58,466 bases of DNA, from positions 1 to 58,466 of the IMG/VR virus record IMGVR_UViG_3300018914_000069; one strand, given 5' to 3'. The translations under genes and the position numbers were made by a program. The stretch comes from a virus (lineage: Duplodnaviria; Caudoviricetes). Shown here piece after piece: positions 15,074 to 55,564 of the stretch (the stretch's first letter is position 1; each line of letters begins with the position of its first letter). Below the pieces are notes generated by a model that saw only the letters and a program-made list of their open reading frames with translations, searched no databases and had not been told where the DNA came from.

Positions 15074-15634
15074 TTAACTCGCATCTTCCTCAGATTGTTC
15101 TTTATTCTTCGAATAGATTCCCAATTCAAAGCAATAATTCAACCTGTTATCAATAACTGGCAAATATGACGAAATGTCCATTTTTTCCTCAAGTAGCATA
15201 TTCTTATGTATATTGGTTGCAGTTGCAAGATCAATGTAACACTCTCTTCCAGTTACATTCTTCGGAAGGTAAGCAAACAGTGGATGAGTACCTTCTACTG
15301 TAGGTTGATACCAAGGCTCAGTTTTATCCTCTTCATAGATGCTGTAGATTTTCGCTACAGTAACATCAAAATGTTCTGTATCTTCATTTAAGACATCAGC
15401 AGATATAACAACTACTTTTCGTGGCTTTATGCTCAATACTACTTGATGAACTTTTCCCGTCAAAAAAGCTTCATTTACAGAAACACAAGTGCCACGATAA
15501 TTGCAGTCATCATCCGGAATAAAGAAGTCCAGTGGCCTTTTGGGAATATAGGGCATGGCTGCCTCAAAGATCCATCCACGCTTAATTAGACTCCAATTTT
15601 GTTTATCCAAGAATTTAGAATTTCTAACTGCCAT
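15074..15634 (-). CDS. PemK/MazF-family endoribonuclease-like protein
   Basis: IKRGWIF...KPRKVVVISAD.LN...VTVAKIYS matches the PemK pattern KRGDI..K.RPVVVIS.D..N..V.VAPITS; longer than usual (186 aa). Confidence 0.7.
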   Translation of the reverse strand: MAVRNSKFLDKQNWSLIKRGWIFEAAMPYIPKRPLDFFIPDDDCNYRGTCVSVNEAFLTGKVHQVVLSIKPRKVVVISADVLNEDTEHFDVTVAKIYSIYEEDKTEPWYQPTVEGTHPLFAYLPKNVTGRECYIDLATATNIHKNMLLEEKMDISSYLPVIDNRLNYCFELGIYSKNKEQSEEDAS

Positions 15635-15638
15635 TATC

Positions 15639-15821
15639 CTAGTCCTCTCTGCGTCTTTTTAAACTAGAAGATCTCATTTGTTCAGGTGTCAACTTTTTAA
15701 GAGGTTTCACTTTTGTATACTGTTGATCTGACTTCAATCCGCGCTTTTCCGCAAGACTAACAATTGTGGAAGGTGCCATCTGTTTCTTCCCCCGTTTCTT
15801 CCTCATAGTTATTCCTCCCAA
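15639..15821 (-). CDS. Small basic protein upstream of the MazF-like gene (possible antitoxin/regulator)
   Basis: RBS GGGAGG before ATG at 15806; 4-bp gap to the toxin gene. Confidence 0.45.
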   Translation of the reverse strand: MGGITMRKKRGKKQMAPSTIVSLAEKRGLKSDQQYTKVKPLKKLTPEQMRSSSLKRRRED

Positions 15822-33419: not shown

Positions 33420-33690
33420 TAGGTAGATTTAAAAGAGGGGAGAGGTGAGTAAGTTCACCAATCCCCCTAAGACTATAACCGTAGCGCACCCATATGCCTA
33501 CGTGATCGTGTCCATGACTAGATGGACGAGATATTATAAACGACAAGGTGGGGCGGCGTATCCCACATCTCTTTTAACCATCTACGATCAATGATATTTC
33601 CTCGTAATGGTGCGATAGTAACCTTTCTATCCTCTTGTCGTTTACTTCACTTTCACAAACTGCTCATGAGAGCATTCACATTCATCTATA
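33420..33690 (-). ncRNA. Candidate structured RNA in the HU-phoH intergenic region
   Basis: 11-bp stem 33537-33547/33634-33644 enclosing three hairpins, plus further hairpins. Confidence 0.45.
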
Positions 33691-37804: not shown

Positions 37805-38827
37805 ATGCTGGCAAATGTATCAGAGTTGCATGTCAATACGGTTTTCAATGATGTTGAGACTTTTTTCAATGAAGAGTTACGATCCGACAATACCAGAAGA
37901 GCGTACCGAAATGACATTGAATCTTTCTTTAAATACATGAGAAATAAAAATATTAATGAGCTTACATACACCGGAAAGAAAGGTGAGGGCTGCGACTTAT
38001 GGTTCGAGTATAAGGACATTCTTCGGTATCGGAGTTATCTAAAAAAAATCTACCCTAAAAGTGCCACAGTAGAGCGCAAAATTGCATCGGTCAGAAAGCT
38101 ATACAAATACTTTGCAAAAAACAACTACAATATTAATCCTCATGCGTTTGAACTGGAATGGGAAGATGAGGACGATACAGACAGTGTAGGAGTACTCTCA
38201 GTACAAGAAGCGATCACAATGGTCGAGTTAGCAAAAGAACTGCCAAATGGTGAGGAAAAATCTCTGATAATTGAACTAGCGTATATGACATCCATTCGTA
38301 TTTCCGCAATTTTAAACATCACATGGGATAAATTTCGCTTTATCGGTAACGATCTATGGGAAATCAAAATTAAAGATAAAGGGAAGAAAAATAAAAAGCC
38401 CATCTTTGACGAAACATATCAACGCCTATATAAGGCAATGAAAAGAGCAGGAGAAGAAAAGGTTTTTACATTATCCTATACAACCATTTATGACACCATA
38501 AAGGAACTTGCAAAGCGAATGGGGATTTCTGAGGAGCGAAAAATAAGTCCGCACAGTCTCAAAAAAACTATGATCAATTGGACATTAGACCAACTTAAAG
38601 ATGTTTTGTTAGCAGCTAAACAAGGCAATCACTCACTAGATGTAATGATGAAGAATTATGTTAGTCAAAATCCCGACTACTCTAACTATCCATTGATGCT
38701 AATGAAGAAGGGCAATGACATCACGCCCCTCATGGAATTAAGCAAAGAAGAATTGATTGCATTGATACAGAGAGCGAGCTTCGGTACACAAAATGAATTG
38801 CTTTCTTTACTAAAACAAGAGAAGTAA
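37805..38827 (+). CDS. Tyrosine-recombinase-fold protein (YopP/MrpR-like), HxxR changed to HSLK
   Basis: SAM-like N-domain (NTRRAYRND), SIRISA, SPHSLKK, GNHS, KNY. Confidence 0.75.
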   Translation: MLANVSELHVNTVFNDVETFFNEELRSDNTRRAYRNDIESFFKYMRNKNINELTYTGKKGEGCDLWFEYKDILRYRSYLKKIYPKSATVERKIASVRKLYKYFAKNNYNINPHAFELEWEDEDDTDSVGVLSVQEAITMVELAKELPNGEEKSLIIELAYMTSIRISAILNITWDKFRFIGNDLWEIKIKDKGKKNKKPIFDETYQRLYKAMKRAGEEKVFTLSYTTIYDTIKELAKRMGISEERKISPHSLKKTMINWTLDQLKDVLLAAKQGNHSLDVMMKNYVSQNPDYSNYPLMLMKKGNDITPLMELSKEELIALIQRASFGTQNELLSLLKQEK

Positions 38828-38905
38828 AATATCTCTTGTTTTCTTCTTGTAATAAATAAAAATATAATGTAAAATGAAAATAAAATATCTTAAGGAGATG
38901 ATCAT

Positions 38906-41077
38906 TTGAGTAATGAAGTGATTGAGATTGAATTAACACCAGTAAAAGAAGTGTCGTACAAAGAGAATACTAACTGGGGACTGTATGCCTGTGACACTCC
39001 AGATTTTGAGCGTGTTGAGTACAACCGTCACGGCAACATAAGCGTTTCTGGGATTATGCCCCGACTCGTAATTAACGGAAATTACAAAGCACACCTAATT
39101 AAAACGATTCACCCGCGTTATGGGGTGGGATACCAAGTTAAATGGATTGAGCAAATCTTACCTTCATCTGTCGCAGAGCAGCGAGCCTACCTAAAGTCCA
39201 TTCTCACCCCGTTACAAGTTGAAGCCATTTATGAAGCTTACCCAAATGAAGATGTAATTCAATTATTCAAAGATAATACATTTGACTTTAAACGAGTCAA
39301 AGGCATAGGGGAAATTACCTACAAGAATATCCGTGAAAAGGTACTTGAAAATCTCAATGTGCAAGCTGCACTATCTAAATTGAGCCGATATAATATCACA
39401 TACAACATGATATTGAAGCTAATCCGACAATACGGCTCATCGGAATTAGCCATCCAGAAGGTTGAAAGCAATCCATATTGCCTTGCTACAGACATCTCTG
39501 GAGTTGGATTCCTTAAAGCGGACTCTATTGCTCATAGCATGAATTTCGATCCGCAGAGTTCGTTTAGAATACGAGCTGCTATCGAATATGTCATTGAACA
39601 AGAACAGTTTAACGGGCATACATACATATCTGCAAAACAACTGACCGAAATGACTCAGGATTTATTGCAACTTCCTGCTGACTTAATTACTGAGCAAATA
39701 AATGTCCATGAAAACATTGTTCGTATTGATGACAAGATTGCCCTTAAGAGGACTTATGAAGCGGAAAAATACATAAGCGTTAAACTGAAGGAAATGTTGG
39801 AGAACTCGACCCAATTGGGGTTCGATCCTGATGAGTTCATTCAAGAACAAGAAGAATTATTAAATATAAAATTAACAGAACAACAAAAAGGATTCATTTA
39901 CAATATCAAAAAGAGTAATGTTAACCTTCTTATTGGGTATGCGGGTACGGGCAAGTCGCAAATGCAGAAGCTATTGATTAACTTACTGAAGAAATTAGGC
40001 ATCACTTACCGTTATTTGTCACCCACTGGAAAAGCTGCTAAGATTCTTACCAATTACATTGGTGAAGAAGCAACAACAATTCACCGAGCGATTGGCTTTG
40101 ACTTAAAGGGTATTATTCCAGAGCAATTTGTAATCGTGGATGAATCAAGTATGTTAGGTGTCCTACTGGCAAGTCGATTACTAAAAAACTGTACTCATCC
40201 AAGATTGCGTATTTTATTTGTGGGTGATCCGTTCCAGTTGCCGTCAGTTGAAGCTGGCTGCTTACTCCATGATTTGATTAGTAGTGGGATCTTCCCTGTA
40301 ACAGAATTGAACCATGTATTCCGTCAGGAAGAGGGTGGTATTCTCGATGTTGCAACAAAGATAAGACAGGGCACTCCCTTTATTGAAAGTGACTTTAGCG
40401 GTGGGCAGATGTTTGGCAAAGATTTGCAGTTTTACTCAGTTGAGCAAGAAAAAATGATTGGTGGATATAAGTACGGATTTAATAAGTTACTAGAGAATTA
40501 TGAAGCAGACGATATTATGGTGCTTTCACCGACTAAAAAGGGTAATTTGGGTACGATCTCAATAAACACAGTCATTCAGGATATTGTAAATCCTAAGAGT
40601 GATGACAAAGTTGAATATGAATATGGAACAGGCGTGTTTTATCGCGTTGGTGACTCCATTATCAACACGAAAAATCTATATGAAGTTAATACAATCGATG
40701 GAGAAAAAACGAATGTAGTTAATGGCGATATGGGTAAAATTATTGAGATTGACCTACATAACAAGAAGATGATCATTGACTATGGTTTCGCAAAAGTTCC
40801 TGTAAGTTTTAGTGATCTGGATACAATCTTACATTCATATTGCATCACGATACATAAAAGTCAGGGTTCGGCTGCGAAAGCTGTGATTGTTTTGTTTGAT
40901 AAGTCGCATACATATCAACTTAATGCAAACTTGATTTATACAGCTATTACTCGTGCAAAGGAATATGTATTTATGCTATGTCAGGCCAATGTTATCAATC
41001 GAGCGATAAAAAAGGTGGAGAATTTACAACGGAATACATTTCTTAAGGATTTACTGATTGAAGATGGCGATAAATAA
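38906..41077 (+). CDS. recD2: RecD2/TraA-family SF1B helicase
   Basis: HhH VKGIG, GYAGTGKS, SPTGKAA, VDESSM, GDPFQLPSV, NGDMG, TIHKSQGS, YTAITRAK. Confidence 0.95.
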   Translation: MSNEVIEIELTPVKEVSYKENTNWGLYACDTPDFERVEYNRHGNISVSGIMPRLVINGNYKAHLIKTIHPRYGVGYQVKWIEQILPSSVAEQRAYLKSILTPLQVEAIYEAYPNEDVIQLFKDNTFDFKRVKGIGEITYKNIREKVLENLNVQAALSKLSRYNITYNMILKLIRQYGSSELAIQKVESNPYCLATDISGVGFLKADSIAHSMNFDPQSSFRIRAAIEYVIEQEQFNGHTYISAKQLTEMTQDLLQLPADLITEQINVHENIVRIDDKIALKRTYEAEKYISVKLKEMLENSTQLGFDPDEFIQEQEELLNIKLTEQQKGFIYNIKKSNVNLLIGYAGTGKSQMQKLLINLLKKLGITYRYLSPTGKAAKILTNYIGEEATTIHRAIGFDLKGIIPEQFVIVDESSMLGVLLASRLLKNCTHPRLRILFVGDPFQLPSVEAGCLLHDLISSGIFPVTELNHVFRQEEGGILDVATKIRQGTPFIESDFSGGQMFGKDLQFYSVEQEKMIGGYKYGFNKLLENYEADDIMVLSPTKKGNLGTISINTVIQDIVNPKSDDKVEYEYGTGVFYRVGDSIINTKNLYEVNTIDGEKTNVVNGDMGKIIEIDLHNKKMIIDYGFAKVPVSFSDLDTILHSYCITIHKSQGSAAKAVIVLFDKSHTYQLNANLIYTAITRAKEYVFMLCQANVINRAIKKVENLQRNTFLKDLLIEDGDK

Positions 41078-41139
41078 ACTTCTTGGGTGAAGGGATCAGT
41101 CATTCTCTTTGCCCGAACCTTTACTTTTGGAGTGATGAC

Positions 41140-41433
41140 ATGAAACGTGATTTCTATATATACAATCCAGCACAAGCTAATTTCTTTTTACAAAAAGGAT
41201 TGGTGCCTGTTGAGATTGGAAAATTAAAGGGAAGTGTGTATATAAAGTTTCTTCGAAATGTAAAAAGTGAAGAGGTTTTTGGAGAGTGGTGTAATCAGAA
41301 TAAAAGTAAAACACTACCCGAATCGGGTAGTAAATTTTTAAAAACGGTACCCGAAAAGGGTAGTGAATTTATGAATAATAAAAAATCGCTACCCGATTCG
41401 GGTTCAAAATTGGACAACATAATAATTAAATAA
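41140..41433 (+). CDS. DUF5659-like small protein with a repeat-encoded C-terminal tail
   Basis: FYIYNPAQANFF..KG; ATG at 41140 after GGAGTGA. Confidence 0.55.
   Translation: MKRDFYIYNPAQANFFLQKGLVPVEIGKLKGSVYIKFLRNVKSEEVFGEWCNQNKSKTLPESGSKFLKTVPEKGSEFMNNKKSLPDSGSKLDNIIIK
41313..41411. repeat. Three palindromic TACCCGA-n-TCGGGTA-like repeats followed by an AT-rich tract
   Basis: ACTACCCGAATCGGGTAGT, TACCCGAAAAGGGTAGT and CTACCCGATTCGGGTT. Confidence 0.75.
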
Positions 41434-41520
41434 TTAATATCAAATAAAAATAGTATAATTAATGACCATATCTTTATTGTCGCGCACGAATGCGCTCCAT
41501 ATGAAAATCTATTTGAAGGG

Positions 41521-42261
41521 ATGTGTACCATGCCAGAATTCAATACTGGATCTGATAACTATCATGAAGGGAATTTTCTTTTACTTTACAATAAATACTA
41601 CACTGAAGATGATCCTCAGCAATTAACACCTAAAGAATTATATACGCTGCTTATCTTGAAGGAATATTCCTCAAAGTTGACTGGGAAAGTTGTCACTACA
41701 TACAATCTAATGGGACATTTGTTACCTTTCACTAATCTATCTGAAAAGAAAAAGAATGCAGCTATCGCTAAATCTTTAATGCAATCCCTTAGAGCGAAAG
41801 GTGTTATTGAATATGATGAACCGAAAGATGCGAATGATCCAGTTATAGTTGACATTGAGAGTGTGAAATATGTACAAAATGATTCTCGAACAAGTTTTCA
41901 ACCGATACCTGATTTTATTTTGAAACGCACAATTGATCCTGATGAATTATATGTATTGATTGTTGTACATAATATTGCCAAGATGTGTGATAAGGGTGAG
42001 TACTCAAAGCCTTATTTCCGTAACAAAAAGAACTGGGGAACATTATTATCCAAAGGAGATTCTACGGCAGAAAAGATTGTAAACCGAATGTGTGAGAAAA
42101 AAATATTATATTACTATGAAAATGATACACACTATGACCGAGAGAAGAATAAATTTGAGCAGCGCCAAGGAAAATATTATTTATTCCCACAGGAACATGA
42201 AGAAGAACGGATAGCTAAAAGGGATATGGAAAGGGAAACTAGAAGAGAGATTAAGAGGTGA
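41521..42261 (+). CDS. Putative winged-helix replication initiator-like protein
   Basis: Two predicted wHTH-like units (LTPKELYTLLIL...SLRAKGVI; ELYVLIVV...RMCEKKIL); next to the helicase and the repeats. Confidence 0.4.
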   Translation: MCTMPEFNTGSDNYHEGNFLLLYNKYYTEDDPQQLTPKELYTLLILKEYSSKLTGKVVTTYNLMGHLLPFTNLSEKKKNAAIAKSLMQSLRAKGVIEYDEPKDANDPVIVDIESVKYVQNDSRTSFQPIPDFILKRTIDPDELYVLIVVHNIAKMCDKGEYSKPYFRNKKNWGTLLSKGDSTAEKIVNRMCEKKILYYYENDTHYDREKNKFEQRQGKYYLFPQEHEEERIAKRDMERETRREIKR

Positions 42262-42280
42262 ATTTATCACCTCTTTTTTT
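42252..42280 (+). terminator. Intrinsic terminator
   Basis: AAGAGGTGA/TCACCTCTT stem followed by a T-run. Confidence 0.75.
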
Positions 42281-42540
42281 AATTTGATTTGGTGACGATA
42301 TAGACGTGTATCGTAAAAGTATAGGTGTGATATGGGATTAAGTCGATTTTAGGTGTAAAATATGCCCCCTGCTTGGTTATGGTGTGGGGATGAGAAAATA
42401 AAGTAAACAAAAAATATAATGTATTGACTTATTAATAGAGATTATGGTACATTAAACTAATGGAGGTGATGGATAAGATATTTTTATTTAATAAATTTGT
42501 ACAGTAGGTTTTTGTGTTTTTGTAAAAAGGGAGAGGTTGT

Positions 42541-43512
42541 ATGATTGAGCAGAAACAAATACAGATAGCTGGCATTACCATTCCAGTAATAATTGAAGAT
42601 GGTATTAGATGGTTTCCGATGAAGAGATTATGTCGAGATATTTTATTGAGAGGAAGTTTATGTAGCGAAAAGGAAATTAAAAATAAATATCATAAGTACA
42701 TACGACCTTTCGATATTAAATACACGGCTAATCAACCTGTTAAAAGCACAATTTGTATTTGTGAAAATGGATTAATTGAAATATTAGTTAAAACTAAAAT
42801 AAACAAACTGACAATAGAAGAGATAAAAAATCAAAATGTTTTACATACATTCTTGGGGATTTTACCAATACATATTACTGAAAAAGATAAGAAACAACTC
42901 AAAAAGCAAAGAAAGAAATCGATAAAATGGAGTAAGCATAAAATTAAACAATATATAAGAAAAAGATATGACAATGGATTAAGTTTATCTAGTGCAAGTG
43001 TTCAGGGTGAATTTAGACAGTTACATGAAGCAGCTATCAAATACTATGGTTCTTGGGAGCAAACTATCAATGCAATCTTGAATATTGATTATGATGAGAT
43101 CCGCGAGGACATTGACTTAATGAAATATTACGGGTTAAAATTTGAAAAATTATTAGGAGATATTATTAAAGAAGTTAGCGGAGATTTTGTTAAAGGATAC
43201 AATCAATATCTGAAACCTGACTTTGTGATAGGATCAACTTGGATAGATGCAAAACTATCGCACTGGACAGCCAGTATTCCTGAAACAATAGAGAAATATG
43301 AGCCATTTTGCGATTATCTAATGATAATTTTCTTAAGAGGCAATAGAACTTTAGATAAAATGGTCACTAATAAAACAAGAATACTAAGTGTTTATACCTA
43401 CATAAAATTATTGTCGGAAGAAAGACAAGAATATTTTATTAAATTATTGGATGAATTGTATGAAAGAATAAATGAGCAAGAGAAGACAATTAAATTAGCT
43501 GAAATTGTTTAG
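42541..43512 (+). CDS. Antirepressor-like N-domain fused to a PD-(D/E)XK nuclease
   Basis: IPVIIEDGIRWFPMKRLC; WS..I...AAIKYYGSW homing-endonuclease-type repeat; KPDF...WIDAK. Confidence 0.55.
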   Translation: MIEQKQIQIAGITIPVIIEDGIRWFPMKRLCRDILLRGSLCSEKEIKNKYHKYIRPFDIKYTANQPVKSTICICENGLIEILVKTKINKLTIEEIKNQNVLHTFLGILPIHITEKDKKQLKKQRKKSIKWSKHKIKQYIRKRYDNGLSLSSASVQGEFRQLHEAAIKYYGSWEQTINAILNIDYDEIREDIDLMKYYGLKFEKLLGDIIKEVSGDFVKGYNQYLKPDFVIGSTWIDAKLSHWTASIPETIEKYEPFCDYLMIIFLRGNRTLDKMVTNKTRILSVYTYIKLLSEERQEYFIKLLDELYERINEQEKTIKLAEIV

Positions 43513-43836: not shown

Positions 43837-44255
43837 TATTATGGATGTAAAATAGCCCCCTACCTTGATAATCAAGGCATCTAAAAGCCGTTGATAAGAT
43901 TAGTTATCTTCACTTTACCTTTATCATCTATATTATTTTAGTTATTGGGCACACTATGAGCAGCAGAGTAGAGGACATAACTGCATGATCCAATCCATTT
44001 TCTAAAAGTGGAAGGGAGGCTATCTGCTCAAGCTGCTACCATATATTCGTCACATCGTTTGGGTAACATGTTCGCAGGATTGCAACTCTTCTAATTAGTA
44101 CCACATCCTAATACTAAACATAAACCATATGCAATCAGATATTAGTACCAGATAATAGAAGAACAATTGACCATATATTAAATAAAAATAACTTGTAATA
44201 ACTCATACACCATGTTACAATATATTTAAGCCAATAATAAAGGAGCGGATACATA

Positions 44256-45293
44256 ATGAAAAAGTACTCTTACATCCAAATCGAACAAGATGAGCGTAAA
44301 CCTTACCAAATCAACATTACCGCACAAGTTGAGGAAAACGGTTATTTCTATAGCGACACCATTGGGCGTTTCTGCTTCTACGATGGAGAAGGATCTATTA
44401 CACTAGAAGACGGTACACGCAAAAAATACAAACGTTTTTCCGCTATGCTTAACTTAGTTTACAATATTGATCCAATGGCAAGCATGACAACAAACCTGAT
44501 TGAACAAGTCAAAGAAGAAGTCAAAAAAATAAAGGATACTCAACAAACAGATGCAACTGAACTAACCACAGAACAACAAGAAACAAAAAATAATGAAACG
44601 ACAGAAACCGTCTATACCTCATTCAATCGCTCATTCCCAACTTATGAAGAGGCACATAACTACTGCATTAATTCAGACTTTGACCCATCCCATATTGAAC
44701 AGGTGGAGGTTTCCAATTCTTCACCTATCGAACAACAGCATAATGTAGTAATCGAACAACCAGAAAAACTCTATCTTTACAATCAAACATTCGATACATA
44801 TATGGACGCTTACAATTATGCAATTAAGAACAATATTACAGTATCCATGATTATCTCCAGTAAGGCTAGTATAACGAATGAACGTTTGCAACAATTAGAA
44901 CAAGAATACATTCATAATAAATACAACATGACTTACTTAGATATGGTGGAATACCTTAATCATTTACAGTCTATTCCATTGACTAGGGACTCAGACGACC
45001 GTATTTACAAACTAAAAAATATGATTGAACGTTTTGAACGCAAACAACAGCGAGTAGAACAGGAACGGCAACGACAACAACAGATGAATAAGAAAATAGA
45101 CGCAATGCTACAAGACATGTATTCAAAAGGGATGACCAAACGGGAAATAGGAAGTACAATAACAGAATACCAGTATAACAATCAACCTATATATAAATGG
45201 TATAGCGGTATAACAACGGAACAGATGTATGACGAACTATTAGAGGTTTATAACAGACACTTCATTAATAAAAATATAACGGAGGCCAGTTAA
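44256..45293 (+). CDS. Early hypothetical protein with an internal repeat
   Basis: Promoter TTGTAA...TACAAT and RBS AGGAG; repeated F.TY..A.NY.I motif. Confidence 0.6.
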   Translation: MKKYSYIQIEQDERKPYQINITAQVEENGYFYSDTIGRFCFYDGEGSITLEDGTRKKYKRFSAMLNLVYNIDPMASMTTNLIEQVKEEVKKIKDTQQTDATELTTEQQETKNNETTETVYTSFNRSFPTYEEAHNYCINSDFDPSHIEQVEVSNSSPIEQQHNVVIEQPEKLYLYNQTFDTYMDAYNYAIKNNITVSMIISSKASITNERLQQLEQEYIHNKYNMTYLDMVEYLNHLQSIPLTRDSDDRIYKLKNMIERFERKQQRVEQERQRQQQMNKKIDAMLQDMYSKGMTKREIGSTITEYQYNNQPIYKWYSGITTEQMYDELLEVYNRHFINKNITEAS

Positions 45294-45372
45294 ACACTGG
45301 TTTCCGTTATAACAGCAGCATATTATGATAACAAACTGATAACAGTCATATGATCCAATAACAGAATAACAG
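45159..45372 (+). repeat. ATAACAG repeat cluster 1
   Basis: Exact copies at 45159, 45250, 45309, 45339, 45358 and 45366, plus four near-copies. Confidence 0.8.
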
Positions 45373-45461
45373 CAGCCATTCATACATTCGAGTAATAATT
45401 ATAGAATGGGCTGAATAAGTCTTTTTCATTTCTTCCCCAAGCCTCCTTAATTACTCACACA

Positions 45462-45483
45462 TTATCCACAATATTTATCCACA
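45462..45483 (+). promoter_or_regulatory. Two perfect tandem DnaA boxes
   Basis: TTATCCACA at 45462-45470 and 45475-45483, followed by an AT-rich tract. Confidence 0.7.
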
Positions 45484-45582
45484 CCATGTTTATAAAAAAA
45501 TCATAATAAATAAAAATAATTTGTATACATACACACAATTCCGTGTTATACTTATAATAGATAAAGCGAGAGGGGAAATCTT

Positions 45583-45813
45583 ATGGAAGACTTTTGGAAA
45601 TGGTTAGCCACAATATTAGCAGGAGTTACGGCACTTATAGTCTCGATACTCAACGGAACAAAATTCAAACAAGAACGTCGAAAACTCCGATTAGAGAACA
45701 TCAAACTGGAAAGAGAGATAAAACTAATGAATAGGAAATCAAAACTAGAAATGGAGAAACTAGAACAGGAAATAATCAAACTAAAAAGGGAAAACGCAAA
45801 AGAAAACGAATAG
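45583..45813 (+). CDS. Small membrane-anchored coiled-coil protein
   Basis: N-terminal TM, charged coiled coil, own promoter and terminator. Confidence 0.55.
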   Translation: MEDFWKWLATILAGVTALIVSILNGTKFKQERRKLRLENIKLEREIKLMNRKSKLEMEKLEQEIIKLKRENAKENE

Positions 45814-45894
45814 ATACGATTGATAATACATAATAAAAGGAGAGGGAAGAAATTCCCTCTCTAAACTACAATCCATAATAAAGCGGGTGATACC

Positions 45895-46053
45895 ATGAAA
45901 TTCATTCTATACGCATTGATCATATTAGGATTCACAATCCTATCCTTTGCATTTAATGAACCTTCAACTACAATGAAACTTGTCTATACACTAATCGGCC
46001 TGTTTGCAATCACTTCAGCAGCATACAATCTATATAAGTTGCGTCATAAATAA
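45895..46053 (+). CDS. Small two-TM protein (52 aa, not in the ORF track)
   Basis: GCGGGTGA RBS; MKFILYALIILGFTILSFAF... Confidence 0.55.
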   Translation: MKFILYALIILGFTILSFAFNEPSTTMKLVYTLIGLFAITSAAYNLYKLRHK

Positions 46054-46137
46054 TATGACTTCTCTTAAAGCTCATCTATATCAGGTGAGCTTACATATTA
46101 AATAAGTTAAAAATATAAAGGAGTAATCAATAATCAA

Positions 46138-46725
46138 ATGAATCTAGCCAATATCTCAGTAGGTCAGACCATCAAGAATTACAAGGAATTATGCGCATTA
46201 CTAGGAGTAGAACTGAAAACAGGCAAATCTAAACAACTTCAGTTGTCAGAGTTTGAATTGTATTTCAAGTATAAGAAAGCAGGACATAGTTTTATTATTG
46301 AAGATATTTATGAAATTCCAAAAGTCAAGCCTTATAAACGTGGCGGGGAAAATTTTATTCGTGGATCTAGTAGTCAAAGACTTTATAAAATATACACAGG
46401 AATGAAGGATCGTTGCTATAATTTAAATAATCAAGCCTACAATCATTATGGTGGTAGAGGTATAAAAATATGTGACGAATGGTTAGGAAATTTCATGAGT
46501 TTCTATACTTGGTCAATTCAAAACGGCTACAATGACACTTTGACAATTGACCGTATAGACGTAAATGGGAATTATGAACCATCAAATTGCAAATGGTCTA
46601 CAAGAAAAGAGCAAGCCACCAACAGAAGACCAAAGAGTATAAATAAAGCTAAATTAGAACAAATACGAAAAATTAAAGAAATTATGGGTAAATACGGAAT
46701 AACACTACATTATTTGTCTACATAG
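46138..46725 (+). CDS. HNH homing endonuclease
   Basis: MKDRCYN...YGGRGIKICDEW...LTIDRIDVNGNYEPSNCKW. Confidence 0.88.
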   Translation: MNLANISVGQTIKNYKELCALLGVELKTGKSKQLQLSEFELYFKYKKAGHSFIIEDIYEIPKVKPYKRGGENFIRGSSSQRLYKIYTGMKDRCYNLNNQAYNHYGGRGIKICDEWLGNFMSFYTWSIQNGYNDTLTIDRIDVNGNYEPSNCKWSTRKEQATNRRPKSINKAKLEQIRKIKEIMGKYGITLHYLST

Positions 46726-46852
46726 CATCCATCCACGACCAGATAAAATTCTGGTCTTTTTCTTTAAATAATATCTAAAAATAACTTGTAATCCGTTCTG
46801 CAATCGATTATAATAAAGATAAGAAAAAGATACATAAACGGGAGTGATTAAA

Positions 46853-47023
46853 ATGATCAACTTGCTTGAGAAATACCAAAAAGGGCAGGCAATCACACTT
46901 AAACGTATGCATGGTCAACAAAACATTTCGGCAACCATTCACCTAGTCATGGAGGATGCTTTAATAGTTCAGGTAAGCGGATATGAAGGCACTGCAAGCG
47001 TAACGGAAGATATGATTGCTTAG
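46853..47023 (+). CDS. Small early protein (56 aa)
   Basis: TTGTAA-17-TATAAT promoter and GGAGTGA RBS. Confidence 0.55.
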   Translation: MINLLEKYQKGQAITLKRMHGQQNISATIHLVMEDALIVQVSGYEGTASVTEDMIA

Positions 47024-47055
47024 ATATAAAAATAAAAATAATTGGAGTGATTATA

Positions 47056-47184
47056 ATGAAAACAGTTTTCTGCTATGTTTGTGATTGTGAAGTTAGTCAA
47101 ATGGATGCGATCATTGAAAGTGAAGAAATCCAATTTTGTAGCAATAAATGTGAAACTTTTTATGATAATAAAAAAGAGGAGTAA
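47056..47184 (+). CDS. Small TRASH/MYM-type zinc-finger protein (42 aa)
   Basis: CYVC...FCSNKC; RBS GGAGTGA. Confidence 0.55.
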   Translation: MKTVFCYVCDCEVSQMDAIIESEEIQFCSNKCETFYDNKKEE

Positions 47185-47261
47185 TCATGATAAAAGCGGT
47201 CTTTGATTAGCATTATCCTTTAGGATATAATAAAATTTATAAATGAGCGGAGGCGGTTACG

Positions 47262-47447
47262 GTGAAAGTTAGACAACAAAATGCGAATGGTGAATGGATT
47301 GAACATGAGGTAAAAATCTCTAATGATCTCGAAACAGAAAGACAAAAGTTAATCAGCGAAATAAACGCATTTAAAAAGGATGTAGCAAAGAAATATGGTA
47401 AGGATGGCTTAAGTAAAGTAAACAACGCATTGAAAGGCTCATTCTAA
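47262..47447 (+). CDS. Hypothetical early protein
   Basis: GGAGG RBS and downstream terminator. Confidence 0.55.
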   Translation: MKVRQQNANGEWIEHEVKISNDLETERQKLISEINAFKKDVAKKYGKDGLSKVNNALKGSF

Positions 47448-47544
47448 TATACGCAAAAAGCCAGTACAAAACTGGTTTTCTTTTTTCCTAATCAAATCGG
47501 CTTTATTAGAAGTAAATACATATGATGAAAAGGAGCGGGTCAAT

Positions 47545-47733
47545 GTGAATGAAATTAAATTTGTAGAGTTTTTAACTGACTTATTATACAATGATGAATC
47601 GGGAATCGTTCGTACAGTAGGCACTTATGAAGATTTCATGGTTATGACACACAACAATGGATTAGTCGTTAAACTTGGTGACGGATCAGAGTTCCAGCTA
47701 ACTGTTGTGCAAACTAAAGAAGCAAAGGAGTAG
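47545..47733 (+). CDS. Conserved small phage protein
   Basis: VMTHNNGLVVKLGDGSEFQLTVVQ motif; RBS and terminator. Confidence 0.6.
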   Translation: MNEIKFVEFLTDLLYNDESGIVRTVGTYEDFMVMTHNNGLVVKLGDGSEFQLTVVQTKEAKE

Positions 47734-47879
47734 ACCAGTCGAATGACTGGTCTTTTTGTTTTCCAGTCATTGCAGATTTATATAAATATATAAATAAAAA
47801 TAATAAAAACTAATTGACATTTATTTGTATCTCCTGTATAATAAAGATATAAAATAAATGATACGGAGATGATACATAA

Positions 47880-48089
47880 ATGGCAACTGAAAAACAAATC
47901 GCATACTTTGAAGCACTGGCGAAACAATGGGAGCAACGCAACGGATCGGCAAAATTTCAAGGAAGAAAACAAACTGAGCGGGCAACAGGTGGGATGATTC
48001 AATCAGTAAGGAGAGCAATTGAAGATGGAGAAATCAGTAAGACAGTAATCTCAATGGCAATCGATACACTGAAGAAAGAGCTTCAATAA
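47880..48089 (+). CDS. Hypothetical early protein
   Basis: Consensus TTGACA-17-TATAAT promoter at 47814-47842; starts MATEKQIAY. Confidence 0.6.
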   Translation: MATEKQIAYFEALAKQWEQRNGSAKFQGRKQTERATGGMIQSVRRAIEDGEISKTVISMAIDTLKKELQ

Positions 48090-48226
48090 GAGGCTCTTTC
48101 TTTTACTAATCAAATCGGTTTTTTATTGCAAGTTTAATAAACAAAAAAATATAATAAACATGTTGCAATAACTTGCTATATCCCTTATAATATAATCAAG
48201 AAGCAAATACATAGGAGGCGATTAGG

Positions 48227-48427
48227 ATGAAACAAATAAAGATTCTTTCCACAATTAGTTTATCCCTTACTGTTGACAAGGTATATGAAGTAATCAACGA
48301 GGATAGCTGGACGGATGAAGATCCAGAAGGCAATAAATATACAGTAAAATCTGTCAAAGTAATTGACGATGATGGAGACGAATACGCTATAGTGAACTTT
48401 GATGAAGCTGAATATGTATACGTTTAA
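48227..48427 (+). CDS. Small acidic early protein
   Basis: Own promoter, AGGAGG RBS and terminator. Confidence 0.6.
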   Translation: MKQIKILSTISLSLTVDKVYEVINEDSWTDEDPEGNKYTVKSVKVIDDDGDEYAIVNFDEAEYVYV

Positions 48428-48575
48428 GAAGCCAAAAAGTGGCTTCTTTTCATTTCTGAATCAAAGAATGTTTTAGTTCGATTTTTATAAACCAAAAATA
48501 AAACAATACTGTTGCTTAGTATAGTGAAATCCTATATACTGGAATTAAGGAACAAAAGCATAGGAGGCGGTTTGA

Positions 48576-48962
48576 ATGTCACAAATTTACATCCTGAAAA
48601 ATGGTTTCCCTGTCACGATCCCATACAGAAAGAATCTTGAAAAATCGGCGAATATGGGCAGCATGTTTGCTCAGGATATTGAGCCAACAGGCGACTATAT
48701 CAATTATCACGAAAAACAATGGGGCATTGACTTGCCTAATCATGTATACGGCACAATTACATTTTATAATCCGCTTGTTATTGAATGGGAAACGACTGGT
48801 CACGGGGGATGGAAAACAAAACTGTCTGAGCGTTTTGGAGGAAAAACCAAAAAGGCACTAACAAACGCAATTGTGAAAGCTGGATATGACGCAGTGATAA
48901 CTATAGACAGTAGTAGCGGCGAATTCATGGAAATAGTGAATATCAATGGAGTTAAATCATAA
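48576..48962 (+). CDS. Possible ART-PolyVal-like ADP-ribosyltransferase-fold protein
   Basis: TITFYNPLVI...AIVKAGYDAVI...EIV pattern; own promoter and terminator. Confidence 0.4.
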   Translation: MSQIYILKNGFPVTIPYRKNLEKSANMGSMFAQDIEPTGDYINYHEKQWGIDLPNHVYGTITFYNPLVIEWETTGHGGWKTKLSERFGGKTKKALTNAIVKAGYDAVITIDSSSGEFMEIVNINGVKS

Positions 48963-49077
48963 CCAGCAAATAGGCTGGTTTTTCATTTGACCAATATCCA
49001 TAAGTATAAAAATAAATTCAACCGTCAATAATTGACTAGTACATACTTCCCAGACTATACTATTTACATGCCATTTT

Positions 49078-49437
49078 ATGGAGGATGATCCAATGGAAGC
49101 AGTAACTTGTTTCAAGTGTGAGGGATCAGAATATTTGCCGCAGTACAAACATAAAGACGATGGAATCTGCTATCCGTGTAAGGGGACAGGGGAACTTAAG
49201 CGGGCTACAATTGAAAAGGCAGGAATACTGTTTGAATACATGGTCGCAAATGAACGTTCGACAAAAAAGGATCTGATAGTGAAGATTATACAACTCGTGA
49301 ACGAGAATGACGAATTAGAACGGGAATCACAACATGCCAAAAGGGATTTTGATTTTGAGACTGCATACTATTTTGATACGCAGATTGCAGAGAATATGAC
49401 CAAGATACACAAGCTGCGGAAAGAAGCTGGAATATAG
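49078..49437 (+). CDS. Zn-ribbon protein (CxxCxG repeats)
   Basis: CFKCEGS and CYPCKGTG. Confidence 0.55.
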   Translation: MEDDPMEAVTCFKCEGSEYLPQYKHKDDGICYPCKGTGELKRATIEKAGILFEYMVANERSTKKDLIVKIIQLVNENDELERESQHAKRDFDFETAYYFDTQIAENMTKIHKLRKEAGI

Positions 49438-49578
49438 AAGGCCATTGAGATGGCCTTTTTCTTTTTGTCCATTAGACGAGAAAACTTAAAAATAACAACC
49501 AAAAATAACTTGTAAACCATATCGAAACATGGTACAATAAGGACAGTTAAGGAATACATATTTCAGGAGGCGTTACAA

Positions 49579-49704
49579 ATGTCCGAAACAAAACTAAAAT
49601 TAGCTGAAAAATTCCTGATTGAATTTATCCAGAAAGGTGATTTATCGTCAGAAGACGAGCAAGCTCTTTTCGAAGCAATACGGGTATTAAAGGAAAATAC
49701 ATAA
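49579..49704 (+). CDS. Small protein (41 aa, not in the ORF track) ending at the hammerhead
   Basis: TTGTAA-17-TACAAT promoter, AGGAGG RBS, MSETKLKLAEKF... Confidence 0.6.
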   Translation: MSETKLKLAEKFLIEFIQKGDLSSEDEQALFEAIRVLKENT

Positions 49705-49768
49705 GCCACCTGACGAGCTAGTGAGAGTCTAGCGAAACGCCTAGAAATAGGCGTAGTGGTAAGTATTT
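49695..49768 (+). ncRNA. Type I hammerhead ribozyme
   Basis: Stem I GCCAC/GUGGU (plus AAAUAC/GUAUUU), core CUGACGA 49710-49716, stem II GCUAG/CUAGC, GAAA 49734-49737, stem III CGCCUA/UAGGCG, cleavage triplet GUA (cut after 49755). Confidence 0.92.
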
Positions 49769-49790
49769 AATTACAAGGAGGTATATACAT

Positions 49791-52241
49791 ATGAAATACC
49801 AAACGGGAACAATTGTAAAAATGGAAGGCTGCCCAAAGAAAGTGGATTGCGGAGTATTTGAGATTGACCGCCTTTGGAATGAAAACGAATCCGCATTTGT
49901 CTATAAGCTTAAAAAAGATGGTACACGTTCTAAAAACGGGCTTAATATCTTTAAAATTTCCCATATGGATAAGTACGGAAAGATTATCAATAGGGAAGAA
50001 CTTGCAAATGCCATTTCTCAAGTAAACAAGACACTTAAAGAAACTAAAGAAAATCAAACTATCTATACATATGTAGAAACAGACCGAAAAAAGCTGCAAA
50101 AAGGCGATTACATCAAAGTAGTTAAGCCTATTCATACAACGTCCAGCATTTACGCAATCCCAGCAGGAGCCATTTACACTATTTCCGCTTGTGAAGGTCA
50201 AAACGCTACAAGATACGTTTTAAAGCGTATCGGTAAAAAAGGGCAAGTATTAAGCGGTAACTCTGGAGCATTTAATATTGTTAGTTTTTCCGCTCAAACT
50301 GTAGAAAAACTGATTGCGGAAGGATATATCATCATTGTTGAGCAAGTACAGCAGATTAGAAAAGAAATGAGCCAACAACAAGAAGAACAACCAACAGCCG
50401 AACAGGTAACAGAACAAGCAGATAACCAAGCAGAAGCGCAAGAGGAGCCGACAAGCAACGAAACGAACACAGCAGAGCCAGTGAAAAAGCATCATGTCCA
50501 ATCTGTACAGGTGACACGTTTAGAGGGCTACAAATGGGATTGTAAGACGCTAACAGTCTCCACAATTGCAGAAGCTAACAAAGTCATTCAGGAAATGGCG
50601 TGGGCTGCGCCTTCTGATGGTTCGTATGACAAAACGCAATTTGTAATAACCTTTACAGATGAGAACACATATACAGGTAGAATTGACTTGCAATACAAAC
50701 ATACTAGCGGCTATGACTTAGAAAAGCATGTAATGAGACACATTAACTACATGATGGAACAGGGAACAGATGAACAAAAGGAACATGGCAGAGATTTCCT
50801 CAATAGGTATGTGCTTAGTGAGGAGCCTGTCAAAATTGAAGAAGTGAGAACAAAACCGCCTGCGCAAGCACAAGTAGAACAAGAACAGCAAGTCGAAATA
50901 ACAGGCACAACAGATGACAACGAGCTTCTTGTTCTGACTAATGAACAGTCCGCAGAGTTGGAAAAACGTTTCACAAACAACAAGGCAACCAAACAGGAAG
51001 AGGAACTATTAACCAAGTACCATTTGCAATTACAGGAACAGGCTATGAAATACAAGGCAACATTACCAAGCAACTATGAAGAATTGATTAATGATGAAAA
51101 CGTGTATAAAGTTCTTTCTTGCTTCCCTTCTGATGGTGGATCGGCTGGAGTGTATGAGATTGAAATAACAGGCAAGCAGTTAAAAGATGACTTATGGACT
51201 GGGGTATTTATTCTAAATATCATTACACCATTAGAAGAACAGCACGACACGACAGAAGAGTTTGAGGAGATTAGCAGCGAAGAGCAGACACAAGGAGAAC
51301 AAAGCGACACAGACAACGGAATAGCAGTTACAATTAATCAGGAATTACAGGGTATCGAAATTGCTTTTACTGAAAAGCCATTGCAAGAAGTCATCGTACA
51401 ACTAAAAACAAACGGTTTCCGCTGGTCTAAGTTTAAAAAAGTTTGGTATGCTAAACAAACAGGAAAAACACTTGCATTTGTTCAATGTTTGACAGGAGAA
51501 AAGGCGAACGACATCCATACAGAACAGGTAAAAACAGAGCAGCCTTATTCATATCCTGAAATTAATATTGATGATCTAGACCAATACACGGTTTCTGAAC
51601 AATTGCAAAGCCGCCTTAATTCTTCTTCCCTGTTTAATGTTGATTATCAGAAAGATTGTGAATTGACATTCCGAAACATTCAAAGCGAAGCTTTAGAAGT
51701 TCTTTCGCTAACAGATGATCCGCGTTTGACATATTACATAAAAAAATATGTACAATCATTTAAGCGGCGATATTATGAACAATACTTGAAAATACTTAAT
51801 CATAAAGCGTCTAACCCATCTTGGGCAGTTACTGGACGTGGTGGGATAAACGTAAGACGTTATAACAAAATGCAGGATAGATATGACAAATATCTTGGGG
51901 AATCAGTGAAACTGTCCGAAGAGTTTAAACGGAAGATGCAAGAATTCAAAAGGCAAATACGAGACGAAAAGCAGCGACAATGGCGCGAAAAAATGAATAT
52001 CAATCTAAGTGGAACAGAACTAAAAGAAATGTTTACAGTAGAGAAGAAACCTGTCACAGTGGCAGGATATACGGAAACAGTTAGGACATACAACTATAAC
52101 GGGTACACGATTGCAAAAACGTGGGGGATGTGGCGCATTTTTAAGAACGGAAAAGAGATTGATACAACACTCAAAACAACAGACACCCTAGACACGGCAA
52201 AAAGATATGTATTGATGCTCTGTGAGCAAGAATCTGCTTAA
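49791..52241 (+). CDS. Large polyvalent-type early protein (LPD25-like and DUF3560-associated-like domains)
   Basis: GSYDKTQFVITF...YTGRIDL; IEIAFTEKP...LKTNGFRWS....WY; PSWAVTGRGG; E/Q-rich linkers. Confidence 0.6.
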   Translation: MKYQTGTIVKMEGCPKKVDCGVFEIDRLWNENESAFVYKLKKDGTRSKNGLNIFKISHMDKYGKIINREELANAISQVNKTLKETKENQTIYTYVETDRKKLQKGDYIKVVKPIHTTSSIYAIPAGAIYTISACEGQNATRYVLKRIGKKGQVLSGNSGAFNIVSFSAQTVEKLIAEGYIIIVEQVQQIRKEMSQQQEEQPTAEQVTEQADNQAEAQEEPTSNETNTAEPVKKHHVQSVQVTRLEGYKWDCKTLTVSTIAEANKVIQEMAWAAPSDGSYDKTQFVITFTDENTYTGRIDLQYKHTSGYDLEKHVMRHINYMMEQGTDEQKEHGRDFLNRYVLSEEPVKIEEVRTKPPAQAQVEQEQQVEITGTTDDNELLVLTNEQSAELEKRFTNNKATKQEEELLTKYHLQLQEQAMKYKATLPSNYEELINDENVYKVLSCFPSDGGSAGVYEIEITGKQLKDDLWTGVFILNIITPLEEQHDTTEEFEEISSEEQTQGEQSDTDNGIAVTINQELQGIEIAFTEKPLQEVIVQLKTNGFRWSKFKKVWYAKQTGKTLAFVQCLTGEKANDIHTEQVKTEQPYSYPEINIDDLDQYTVSEQLQSRLNSSSLFNVDYQKDCELTFRNIQSEALEVLSLTDDPRLTYYIKKYVQSFKRRYYEQYLKILNHKASNPSWAVTGRGGINVRRYNKMQDRYDKYLGESVKLSEEFKRKMQEFKRQIRDEKQRQWREKMNINLSGTELKEMFTVEKKPVTVAGYTETVRTYNYNGYTIAKTWGMWRIFKNGKEIDTTLKTTDTLDTAKRYVLMLCEQESA

Positions 52242-52325
52242 CAACTAAAAATAATCATCCTGCCTTATCTTATAACGGGATAGGGCAGGATGACCCAAAT
52301 AACAGCATAACAGGGAGGGTTTCAA

Positions 52326-52478
52326 ATGACAGGAACAGCACACCGCATAGGAATTTTAGGTAAAGATCAATGGTCATATAATGGCAAGACAGGGGACGGC
52401 ATGGAAATTTATGAACACAAGGAACGAGGGTGGATCAACCTTTACAACCCAAAAACAGGAGAAATGATTGAAGACTGA
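52326..52478 (+). CDS. Small hypothetical protein (50 aa)
   Basis: GGGAGGG RBS; MTGTAHRIGIL... Confidence 0.5.
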   Translation: MTGTAHRIGILGKDQWSYNGKTGDGMEIYEHKERGWINLYNPKTGEMIED

Positions 52479-52613
52479 ATAACAGCAGCATAACAGAGGA
52501 GGTAATAAACATGCTAACGAAACGACAACAGGCAATCTTAGACATGCTTATTGCAATCTCAAAACAGGATAAACCCGTTAATACTAACCAAAGTAGAAAA
52601 GGAGCATAAACTC

Positions 52614-52913
52614 ATGAAAACAGTTTGTAAATATATCGTTTCATTGCTCATTGTGTGTGCTATCACTTTTTCAACGTCCAGCACGTTTGCATGTGGTGAC
52701 TATGCAGTATTCGTCTACAAGGTGACAAAGGTACAAAACGGGCAATACTGGGGAACTGGTGTTTACGATAACAGCAAAGTATATTTCATTCAGGATAATG
52801 TGATAACAGCCACTAAATTCAAAGTTGGTGATTTTGTGGTAGCTTACTTTGATCCTGATAACATAACAGATGGTCTTGTGGGTGTTGAAAAAGCGATTCC
52901 TGTAGGGAACTAA
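52614..52913 (+). CDS. Secreted/membrane small beta-barrel protein
   Basis: AAGGAG RBS before ATG at 52614; signal-peptide-like N-terminus. Confidence 0.5.
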   Translation: MKTVCKYIVSLLIVCAITFSTSSTFACGDYAVFVYKVTKVQNGQYWGTGVYDNSKVYFIQDNVITATKFKVGDFVVAYFDPDNITDGLVGVEKAIPVGN

Positions 52914-53194
52914 TAACAGAAGGTCGACAACAGAAAGGAGGAATAACAGATGCATGATGAGCGTTTTGATGAGACAATGGGACTGATAACAGCCGTAGTA
53001 GGTGGGATTCTGATTGTGTTGATTGTGTTAGCAGCAAACGCAATGGGAATTACATTGGATTAATAAATAAAAAATAGTTGTAAAGCGTATTGTGTTGGTA
53101 TATAATGGAATTAAGAACAGGATAACAGAACAGATACATAGCAACGATTTAAGATAGAAAAGAAACTAAATAACTTTATACGGGGGTACTTATA

Positions 53195-53497
53195 ATGACA
53201 GGATCAATGAACACTCGCAAGCAAGTTTCTACAGCTCGTAAAAAATCAATCAATGATTTAAAGAGCGGAAAATGGAAAAGGGAGTTTGATGAAGCGGTTT
53301 TGAAGTATCATGCAGAGAATGATCCTGAGATTAAAGAAAGTATTAAGTCCGCATTAGGATTCATGTCAACCACTTTTGGGATTAACAACTTTCCAGAATT
53401 AAAACAATATGCAAAAGAAAAGCTTGCTGAAATTGATAATAATGCAATTGAAAAGTTAACGCCTGCGGAGTTTGTAAAGCGCTGGAAAAATAAATGA
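53195..53497 (+). CDS. Hypothetical protein
   Basis: TTGTAA...TATAAT promoter; stop codon overlaps the junction motif. Confidence 0.55.
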   Translation: MTGSMNTRKQVSTARKKSINDLKSGKWKREFDEAVLKYHAENDPEIKESIKSALGFMSTTFGINNFPELKQYAKEKLAEIDNNAIEKLTPAEFVKRWKNK

Positions 53498-55413: not shown

Positions 55414-55487
55414 GGATCTGTAGCTCAAAGGATGAGCAGGCGGCTCATAACCGCTAGGTCTTGGTTCGATTCCAAGCAGATCCACCA
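55414..55487 (+). tRNA. tRNA with CAT anticodon, most like tRNA-Ile2 (lysidine type, reads AUA)
   Basis: Acceptor GGATCTG/CAGATCC, anticodon arm GGCGG-CTCATAA-CCGCT, T-loop TTCGATT, encoded CCA. Confidence 0.9.
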
Positions 55488-55488
55488 T

Positions 55489-55564
55489 GCGCCTGTAGCT
55501 CAGCGGATAGAGCAATCGCCTTCTAAGCGATGTGTCAGGGGTTCAAATCCCTTCAGGCGCACCA
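55489..55564 (+). tRNA. tRNA-Arg(TCT)
   Basis: Acceptor GCGCCTG/CAGGCGC, anticodon loop CTTCTAA, T-loop TTCAAAT, encoded CCA. Confidence 0.95.

Follow-up and report, generated by a model that had tools for sequence, protein, structure and literature searches.

Why does one short word, TACATA, stand on the sense strand in so many leaders of a block of small phage genes, and could it mark the transcripts of these genes for cleavage by a MazF-type endoribonuclease? The question is raised by a provirus in IMG/VR, whose record has 58,466 bases and a completeness rating of 44%; it was analysed over its whole length and is called the window here. Judged by its gene content, the phage is SPbeta-like. 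The minus strand carries, from 1 to 37.6 kb, the genes for lysis, tail, a tape measure protein of 1645 amino acids (aa), head, portal, terminase and a YonO-like RNA polymerase, and the plus strand carries the genes of 37.8-58.5 kb. Within the latter, 44.2-53.2 kb is a series of short units, each predicted to consist of a sigma-A-like promoter, a leader, an open reading frame (ORF) of 40-130 codons and a terminator.

Placement of TACATA in the small-gene block

The strand-specific leader placement of TACATA in this block is a real motif. In the intergenic DNA of 44.2-53.2 kb the word occurs 12 times on the sense strand where 1.89 copies are expected, and its reverse complement does not occur; for the longer form ATACATA there are 10 copies against 0.84 expected, again with none of the reverse complement. 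Among its 60 anagrams, TACATA has the highest count in this DNA (anagram mean 1.83), and the only comparably enriched words there are those of the Shine-Dalgarno (SD) sequence and a second repeat, ATAACAG. A preliminary description of this locus had listed ten TACAT sites in the leaders and had argued that the signal lay in their position, not in their count. All ten are present on the plus strand. The sites at 44250, 47873 and 49786 do stand between the SD and the ATG (start codons 44256, 47880 and 49791), and the remaining ones lie in leaders, 19-60 nt 5' of the start codon. The argument from position also stood up when leaders of the block were compared with those of other genes and with the antisense word. 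Over the whole window the number of TACAT is ordinary (186 on both strands against 161 +/- 14, with 5 of 100 shuffles reaching 186). From -35 to -1 of the genes 44256-53195, TACAT occurs in 8/18 leaders, as does GGAGG, and AGGAG occurs in 9, the latter two being SD words, and the antisense ATGTA occurs in 0/18. When windows of -40 to -1 were used, TACAT was found before 8/18 block genes against 2/39 late genes and 0/5 and 1/11 other plus-strand genes, which makes 3/55 elsewhere (Fisher p = 3.4e-4). Intergenic DNA from 45294 to 53194 holds 13 TACAT against 3.9 +/- 1.9 expected, a number that 0 of 2000 dinucleotide shuffles reached, and 0 ATGTA against 3.0 expected. We dropped the complete absence of antisense TACATA as separate evidence, as about 1.9 copies are expected and the zero is not significant alone. 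ATG is only mildly avoided in the leaders (24 against 31).

The 12 sites, all on the plus strand, are as follows.

44250..44255, plus strand: TACATA between the SD (AAGGAG) and ATG 44256, 29 nt after the -10 box of promoter 44193-44221
45526..45531, plus strand: TACATA at the 5' margin of a pair of predicted promoters (45524-45552 and 45530-45558); transcribed only within the 3' untranslated region of 44256-45293
45826..45832, plus strand: ATACATA in the spacer that separates ORF 45583-45813 from ORF 45895-46053
46092..46097, plus strand: TACATA in a spacer, 46 nt before the ATG of ORF 46138 (HNH endonuclease-like)
46830..46836, plus strand: ATACATA just 5' of the SD of ORF 46853, 17 nt after the -10 box of promoter 46786-46814
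47516..47522, plus strand: ATACATA 28 nt before GTG 47545, with no clear promoter, 3' of terminator 47457-47479
47872..47878, plus strand: ATACATA between the SD and ATG 47880, with promoter 47814-47842 (12/12 consensus)
48207..48213, plus strand: ATACATA abutting the SD (TACATAGGAGGCG) of ORF 48227, 17 nt after the -10 box of promoter 48163-48191
49040..49045, plus strand: TACATA inside the spacer of promoter 49032-49061
49554..49560, plus strand: ATACATA 5' of the SD of ORF 49579, 17 nt after the -10 box of promoter 49510-49538
49785..49791, plus strand: ATACATA overlapping the ATG of an 816-aa primase-like gene (GGAGGTATATACATATG); absent in the relative's orthologue
53134..53140, plus strand: ATACATA 60 nt before ATG 53195, 29 nt after the -10 box of promoter 53078-53106

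Ten of the 12 lie downstream of predicted promoters or within inter-ORF spacers, and these sites should therefore be present in RNA. One of the TACAT sites listed earlier, at 49065, reads TACATG and so is not the strict 6-mer; it lies only 4 nt after the -10 box, at the predicted start site, and for this reason may not be in RNA. TACATA as a -10-like element was set aside, since it lacks the conserved last T.

The preliminary description had named a DNA operator near the transcription start as its alternative. In such a role the word would act as a roadblock for a repressor. The fixed distance from the -10 box (17 nt in three promoters and 29 nt in two) would suit an operator, and it would also suit leaders that were duplicated together with their promoters. 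But the word has only 6-7 bp, is asymmetric and has uninformative flanks, and it also occurs in spacers without a promoter and between SD and ATG. Moreover, the repressor of the SPbeta family is reported to read a motif of 15-24 bp (PMC10516654; 10.1101/2025.11.27.690993). The SPBRE / SroF (MrpR) operators resemble TACATA in being repeated elements in early promoter regions of SPbeta-like phages, but they are DNA sites of that greater length bound by an integrase-fold repressor, whereas TACATA is transcribed and strand-specific and, with its uninformative flanks and its copies outside promoters, does not behave as such an operator would. A block at the -35 box, AAAAATAACTTGTAA, is a better operator candidate, and we consider an operator role for TACATA very unlikely.

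Correspondence with the MazF/EndoA site

In RNA the word is UACAUA. The B. subtilis MazF (EndoA) is reported to cut U^ACAU only where an A comes next, which makes its site UACAUA (PMC11780869; bioRxiv 10.64898/2026.08.06.743204), and in reporters the Listeria enzyme cut UACAUA only, while the S. aureus enzyme cut UACAUA best and two other words weakly (bioRxiv 10.64898/2026.08.06.743204). The premise from which the leader sites were first noticed, that B. subtilis MazF cuts UACAU and that the SPbeta/phi3T phages modulate MazEF, thus has the published reports behind it (PMC11780869; PMC10769878). As that argument was made from the 5-mer, the base in the sixth position is an independent match to the MazF site: A follows 12/14 intergenic TACAT (binomial p = 6e-4 at 40% A) and precedes 11/14. 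The strict site U^ACAUA, in which the sixth A is required, is present as the 12 intergenic TACATA.

The word is also over-represented on the sense strand inside reading frames, as judged against expectations from codon shuffles.

Window, all ORFs: sense TACATA 36 against 16.3 expected; antisense 16 against 16.5
Window, ORFs 37805-43512: sense TACATA 13 against 2.3 (0/500 shuffles); antisense 4 against 1.7
Window, ORFs 44256-53497: sense TACATA 5 against 3.6; antisense 4 against 2.5
SPbeta, ORFs: sense TACATA 112 against 41; antisense 36 against 41
B. gelatini phage, ORFs: sense TACATA 99 against 42; antisense 62 against 53
37805..43512, plus strand: the five longer ORFs (a YopP-like integrase-family protein, a RecD2-like helicase and three unassigned)

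This in-ORF enrichment is common to the window, SPbeta and a phage of Brevibacillus gelatini, and agrees with a published ORF-level count (10.1101/2023.04.27.537455). In the long ORFs the word stands inside the frame, and in the adjacent short ORFs it stands in the leader. This division fits the idea that an ORF of 40-130 codons will rarely hold a 6-nt site by chance, and a site in the leader would make the short transcript sensitive.

Our leading explanation, which is tentative and to which we give somewhat less than an even chance, is that (A)UACAUA in the leaders at 44.2-53.2 kb is the target of a MazF/EndoA-type endoribonuclease, most likely the chromosomal MazF of the host. The cleavage of these RNAs, the enzyme involved and the effect on the life cycle are all what we infer from the placement of the word. 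Host MazF would cut U^ACAUA in single-stranded leader RNA; the sites have a predicted unpaired probability of 0.72, compared with 0.56 over all 6-nt windows, and 7/10 sites lie above the median, which supports such cutting weakly. With one site in its leader, each short transcript would be vulnerable to one cleavage event. Cleavage between SD and AUG (44250, 47873 and 49786) would uncouple the ORF from its ribosome-binding site, and a cut just 5' of the SD (46831, 47517, 48208 and 49555) would remove the 5' triphosphate and leave a 5'-OH end. In B. subtilis, 5'-OH ends are reported to be trimmed to monophosphate (PMC11780869), and the trimmed end may then become accessible to RNase J1. The same word, placed within their reading frames, would expose the long ORFs nearby (37.8-43.5 kb) to cutting. 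Active MazF would in this way silence the gene block, as has been proposed for phi3T when AimX is absent.

The word might also serve another RNA factor, as the site of a small RNA with a UAUGUAU seed or of an RNA-binding protein, or as a translational enhancer. A strand-specific word of 7 nt beside the ribosome-binding site has the size of a small-RNA seed, and such a factor could account for the conserved 5' A, which MazF does not explain. But no candidate small RNA was found, the Rfam scan of the window returning two tRNAs and a skipping-rope RNA only, and enrichment inside ORFs suits a nuclease better than something that binds at the ribosome-binding site. This makes such a factor quite improbable.

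Related phages and reused leaders

The closest relative is represented by a 136-kb contig from Brevibacillus gelatini DSM 100115, in which the orthologue of the 816-aa protein is 70% identical; scans of viral contigs and of genome contigs with this protein led to the same single contig. Intergenic TACATA in this phage occurs 37 times in sense against 8.5 expected, and 6 times in antisense against 9.9, and the syntenic block has 8 sense intergenic copies against 1.22. An A precedes TACATA in 28/37 sites, and at eight sites a start codon is no more than 10 nt away, with the arrangement GGAGG-N-TACATA-(A)TG. In the leaders (-40..+3) the counts are 15/240 against 5/240, with 5/23 in the syntenic 10 kb (Fisher p = 0.008). 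The genome of B. gelatini has three PF02452 genes, and its 116-aa MazF differs from B. subtilis EndoA by 8 of 116 residues. Only seven plus-strand proteins of the window have orthologues in the relative. The small ORFs are not common to the two phages, and leader cassettes such as AAATACATAGGAGGC are.

A number of observations weigh against cleavage by MazF as the reason for the sites. The motif was picked after inspection of the sequence, and in 37% of 500 shuffles some 5-mer attains the same z-score. Some of the leaders are related cassettes, with 9/15 or more upstream letters in common in 4/66 site pairs, so that the 12 sites cannot count as independent; when look-alike leaders are merged into 8 groups, the Poisson p is 7.7e-4, which fails a correction for 4096 words. 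Two sites, 45526 and 49040, lie within promoters, and the strict site is missing in 3 of about 11 transcription units (47262, 48576 and 49093). The 5' A of ATACATA, found in 10/12 sites here and in most of those in the relative, is outside the published MazF site. SPbeta itself, for which control by MazF is established, shows no enrichment in the leaders of its early blocks under its own annotation (TACAT 5/55 and 4/65, ATGTA 6/55 and 5/65), nor any strand bias in its intergenic DNA (14 sense and 12 antisense, about 4 expected each). In the B. gelatini phage TACATA is the top anagram, but by 37 to 27 for the next non-overlapping one, and neither of the two orthologues whose leaders carry the site in the window (49791 and 55593) has kept it there (0/2). 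What cuts 5' of the SD would do to translation is a guess. Finally, a search of sequencing runs found the window sequence only in three DNA runs of one biocrust-metagenome study, none of them RNA. The earlier idea that the early transcripts are built to be silenced by cleavage at the ribosome-binding region is therefore borne out in part: the word is sense-specific, placed in leaders and identical with the strict MazF 6-mer, but SPbeta lacks the bias and the orthologous leaders lack the site.

Several of these points would be explained if the word had no nuclease role and merely rode on duplicated cassettes of promoter, leader and ribosome-binding site, and/or on a favoured A/U-rich spacer of the form GGAGG-N2-4-TACATA-(A)TG. 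Look-alike leader pairs exist in the block, namely 47517 and 48208 (AGAAG[T/C]AAATACATA), 44250 and 47873, and 46831 and 47873, and the repeated distances from the -10 box are identical within their groups. The cassette of the 48207..48213 leader recurs in the relative (L001 6223 and 6953), where AAATACATAGGAGGC stands before non-orthologous genes, and the lack of conservation in both orthologous leaders fits as well. Another sign of the duplication of whole cassettes is CTAATCAAATCGG(C/T)TTT, which is repeated directly after two terminators (47488-47504 and 48106-48122; family D4). As for the spacer, the relative has eight cases of the SD-TACATA-ATG design and SPbeta has 2-3. However, the flanks hold at most 0.8 bit per position outside the word, which indicates that most sites are not recent copies, and the word stands before, abutting or after the SD and also in promoterless spacers. 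A favoured spacer leaves the in-ORF sense enrichment across three phages unexplained, and also the identity of the favoured word with the MazF 6-mer including its sixth A. Reuse of leaders without any nuclease is thus a possible explanation, if on the whole an unlikely one; should the word merely hitch-hike on reused leader cassettes, the finding would be an ordinary one.

The nearest known counterpart is the enrichment of MazF sites, with mRNA decay dependent on MazF, in the arbitrium phages phi3T and SPbeta (Guler et al.; Zamora-Caballero et al.; Chmielowska et al. preprint), phages of the same group, with YonO-like, YomM-like and YopP-like genes. UACAU is reported to be enriched in the ORFs of these phages (10.1101/2023.04.27.537455), and most phi3T mRNAs are said to be degraded by MazF. 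The over-representation of sense UACAU(A) in ORFs was reproduced here for SPbeta and for the window, and in both cases MazF is proposed to silence transcripts, the lytic ones there and those of the block here. The route by which MazF promotes lysogeny in arbitrium phages has been called uncharacterized, "possibly preferential cleaving of lytic transcripts" (PMC10769878). The core idea of a relationship between phages and MazF sites is therefore already in print for phi3T and SPbeta. Unlike in that report, whose count covers ORFs alone (10.1101/2023.04.27.537455), the sites of the small genes in the window lie in leaders and SD-AUG spacers, and SPbeta itself does not have this placement. The literature search, with supplementary site tables outside its scope, found no report of UACAUA placed in leaders or at ribosome-binding sites of phage genes. 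Going by the sequences compared, the new element is the placement in the leader or ribosome-binding region, here and more weakly in one relative. If the explanation holds, single sites placed in leaders would give a concrete rule for which transcripts are silenced and where in the mRNA, and the relationship with MazF would extend past the phages of B. subtilis to a distant SPbeta-like clade with MazF-family genes of its own.

Phage T4 encodes RegB, an RNase unrelated to MazF that cuts GGAG itself and inactivates early mRNAs at the ribosome-binding region. A sequence-specific cut in the ribosome-binding region of early phage mRNAs is what we propose here too, but in the window the word flanks the SD, and the host probably supplies the enzyme. 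E. coli MazF, in the model of Vesper et al. 2011, reportedly cuts ACA just 5' of the AUG to give leaderless mRNAs, which is contested. Sites immediately 5' of start codons are common to that model and to the window, but the E. coli model, in another organism and with a 3-nt site, is one of selective translation and not of silencing.

The MazF-fold protein at 15074 and other features of the window

The preliminary description had also proposed that a PemK-like gene of the phage at 15074 might do the cutting. Two genes are concerned.

15074..15634, minus strand: 186-aa protein with a predicted, divergent MazF/PemK fold, an insertion at residues 32-66 and its own terminator after it
15639..15806, minus strand: 55-aa ORF with a very basic product, 4 nt upstream of the gene at 15074 and a candidate for its partner

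The 15074 protein misses the gathering score of PF02452 (PemK_toxin; E = 0.14, 12.8 bits against 23.1) and has no PHROG match, and a six-frame scan of the window gave no PF02452 match at E <= 0.001. By BLASTP it has no similarity to SPbeta YomK or to MazF, and the 14368 product has none to YomJ. In contrast, structure prediction points to a fold of the MazF/CcdB type. The AlphaFold 2 model has a mean pLDDT (per-residue confidence) of 72, with residues 32-66 disordered, and in Foldseek, MazF chains fill the top-ranked PDB matches listed (E = 1e-5 to 2e-4; template modelling (TM) score by target 0.63-0.81), matches at E ~1e-5 having TM by target of 0.68-0.81. The ESM Atlas groups the protein with PemK-named clusters (feature score 0.94, structure TM 0.74), and one of its eight homologues carries the NCBI name PemK/MazF toxin. 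The name given earlier is thus apt for the predicted fold and not for the Pfam family, whose threshold is missed. In a weak alignment (hhalign E = 0.071), Arg72 corresponds to the catalytic Arg25 and is invariant in eight homologues, and the catalytic Thr48 falls on Tyr97, with Ser98 adjacent. As Thr48 aligns to Tyr97, the activity of the protein is uncertain.

A MazF-family RNase encoded by the phage, either the 15074 protein or a canonical orphan MazF as in the relative, could cut the sites and bring about an early shut-off like that by RegB. The structural matches, the agreement of the ESM Atlas and the invariant arginine fit this possibility, as does the relative, whose phage contig encodes a canonical MazF (134 aa; PF02452, 130 bits; L001 20578-20982 = G001:C5:88655-88975). 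That protein is 76% identical to the chromosomal MazF of the host and has no MazE-like neighbour, the gene before it encoding a 223-aa protein without a Pfam family. But for the 15074 protein the sequence signal is below threshold, one catalytic position aligns to a tyrosine, and the identity of 15-18% means that its specificity need not be UACAUA; its gene belongs to the late-strand module and has no counterpart in the relative, and the window has no PF02452 match at E <= 0.001. Cutting by a phage enzyme thus appears improbable to us. We give equally little weight to the wider scheme of an SPbeta-like clade of Brevibacillus/Paenibacillus-type hosts that provides each small early transcript with one MazF-type leader site and uses its own MazF-family RNases to time the shut-off in the manner of RegB.

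The two genes form an autonomous cassette (15074-15806, minus strand) inserted between tape-measure-proximal genes and the YomM-like gene; the B. gelatini relative lacks this cassette, and homologues of it occur in Paenibacillus. The predicted complex of the 55-aa ORF with the 15074 protein scored 0.52 against 0.01 for the best of three controls, which supports a partnership weakly. The mark used was reached by 58/80 solved complexes and 2/110 mismatched pairs, and scores of 0.60 or less were seen in 7/80 and in both mismatches. At least 60% of contacts recur between runs, and the partner has a pLDDT of 55-59. The 55-aa protein, being very basic, is unlike MazE.

The assignment of the phage rests on an SPbeta-type gene set, namely the YonO-like polymerase (phrog_8308 / RdRP domain), the YomM-like protein (34% identity to SPbeta YomM, E = 1e-58), the YopP-like protein and the giant tape measure, and on a gene layout that agrees with SPbeta. 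The host is probably not Bacillus subtilis. The integrase-family protein at 37805 resembles YopP (E = 4e-23) and not YopR (E = 16), and was rejected as a SroF/MrpR repressor. Among the predicted proteins, Pfam and PHROG flagged no aimR-aimP-aimX module and neither of the MazF inhibitors AimX and YosL, with no search aimed at these genes and a record rated 44% complete. A megablast of 44000-50000 against the phage collection gave no match, tblastn with the 816-aa protein gave distant partial matches only, and scans with a 345-aa protein and with the MazF-fold alignment gave no relatives. A 128-aa protein led to two unrelated phages, L009 and L010 (GC 0.41-0.46), whose leaders are uninformative. 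Two of the DNA runs mentioned above (X3 and X1) were compared with the window and showed zero variant letters.

Some further features were seen along the window. The YonO-like polymerase is encoded by two minus-strand ORFs, 34185-34847 and 35182-37128, about 334 nt apart; Rfam shows no intron family in the gap, and the arrangement could be an intron that is not recognised, a frameshift or a true split. The skipping-rope RNA (RF02924, 70.6 bits; 33540-33641, minus strand) lies between a PhoH-like gene and the gene for a YonN-like DNA-binding protein. The tRNAs, tRNA-Met (CAT) and tRNA-Arg (TCT), are in tandem at 55414-55564 on the plus strand, and a TACATA starts at 55565, directly 3' of tRNA-Arg. 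A gene for a GmrSD_N-domain protein (PF03235, E = 3.6e-16; 57381-58466, plus strand) runs off the end of the record, has a YolD-like neighbour at 56910 and is, by its domain, likely a defence or restriction gene.

Two other repeats occur in the block. The first is the candidate operator mentioned above.

44184..44198, plus strand: AAAAATAACTTGTAA block of 15 nt over the -35 box (TTGTAA), with exact copies at 44184, 46777 and 49501 and near copies at 45512 and 53069

This block recurs on a contig that represents a different part of this phage's genome, and it may act as an UP element or as a site for a repressor. The second repeat, ATAACAG, has 30 copies in the window, where 9.7 +/- 3.2 are expected, with 22/30 copies on the plus strand; in intergenic DNA there are 10 against 0.38, and the reverse complement is found 0 times. 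Six copies are clustered at 45159-45372 and 11 at 52299-53128, just 3' of the 816-aa primase-like gene, and these clusters may be replication-origin iterons or a protein-binding array.

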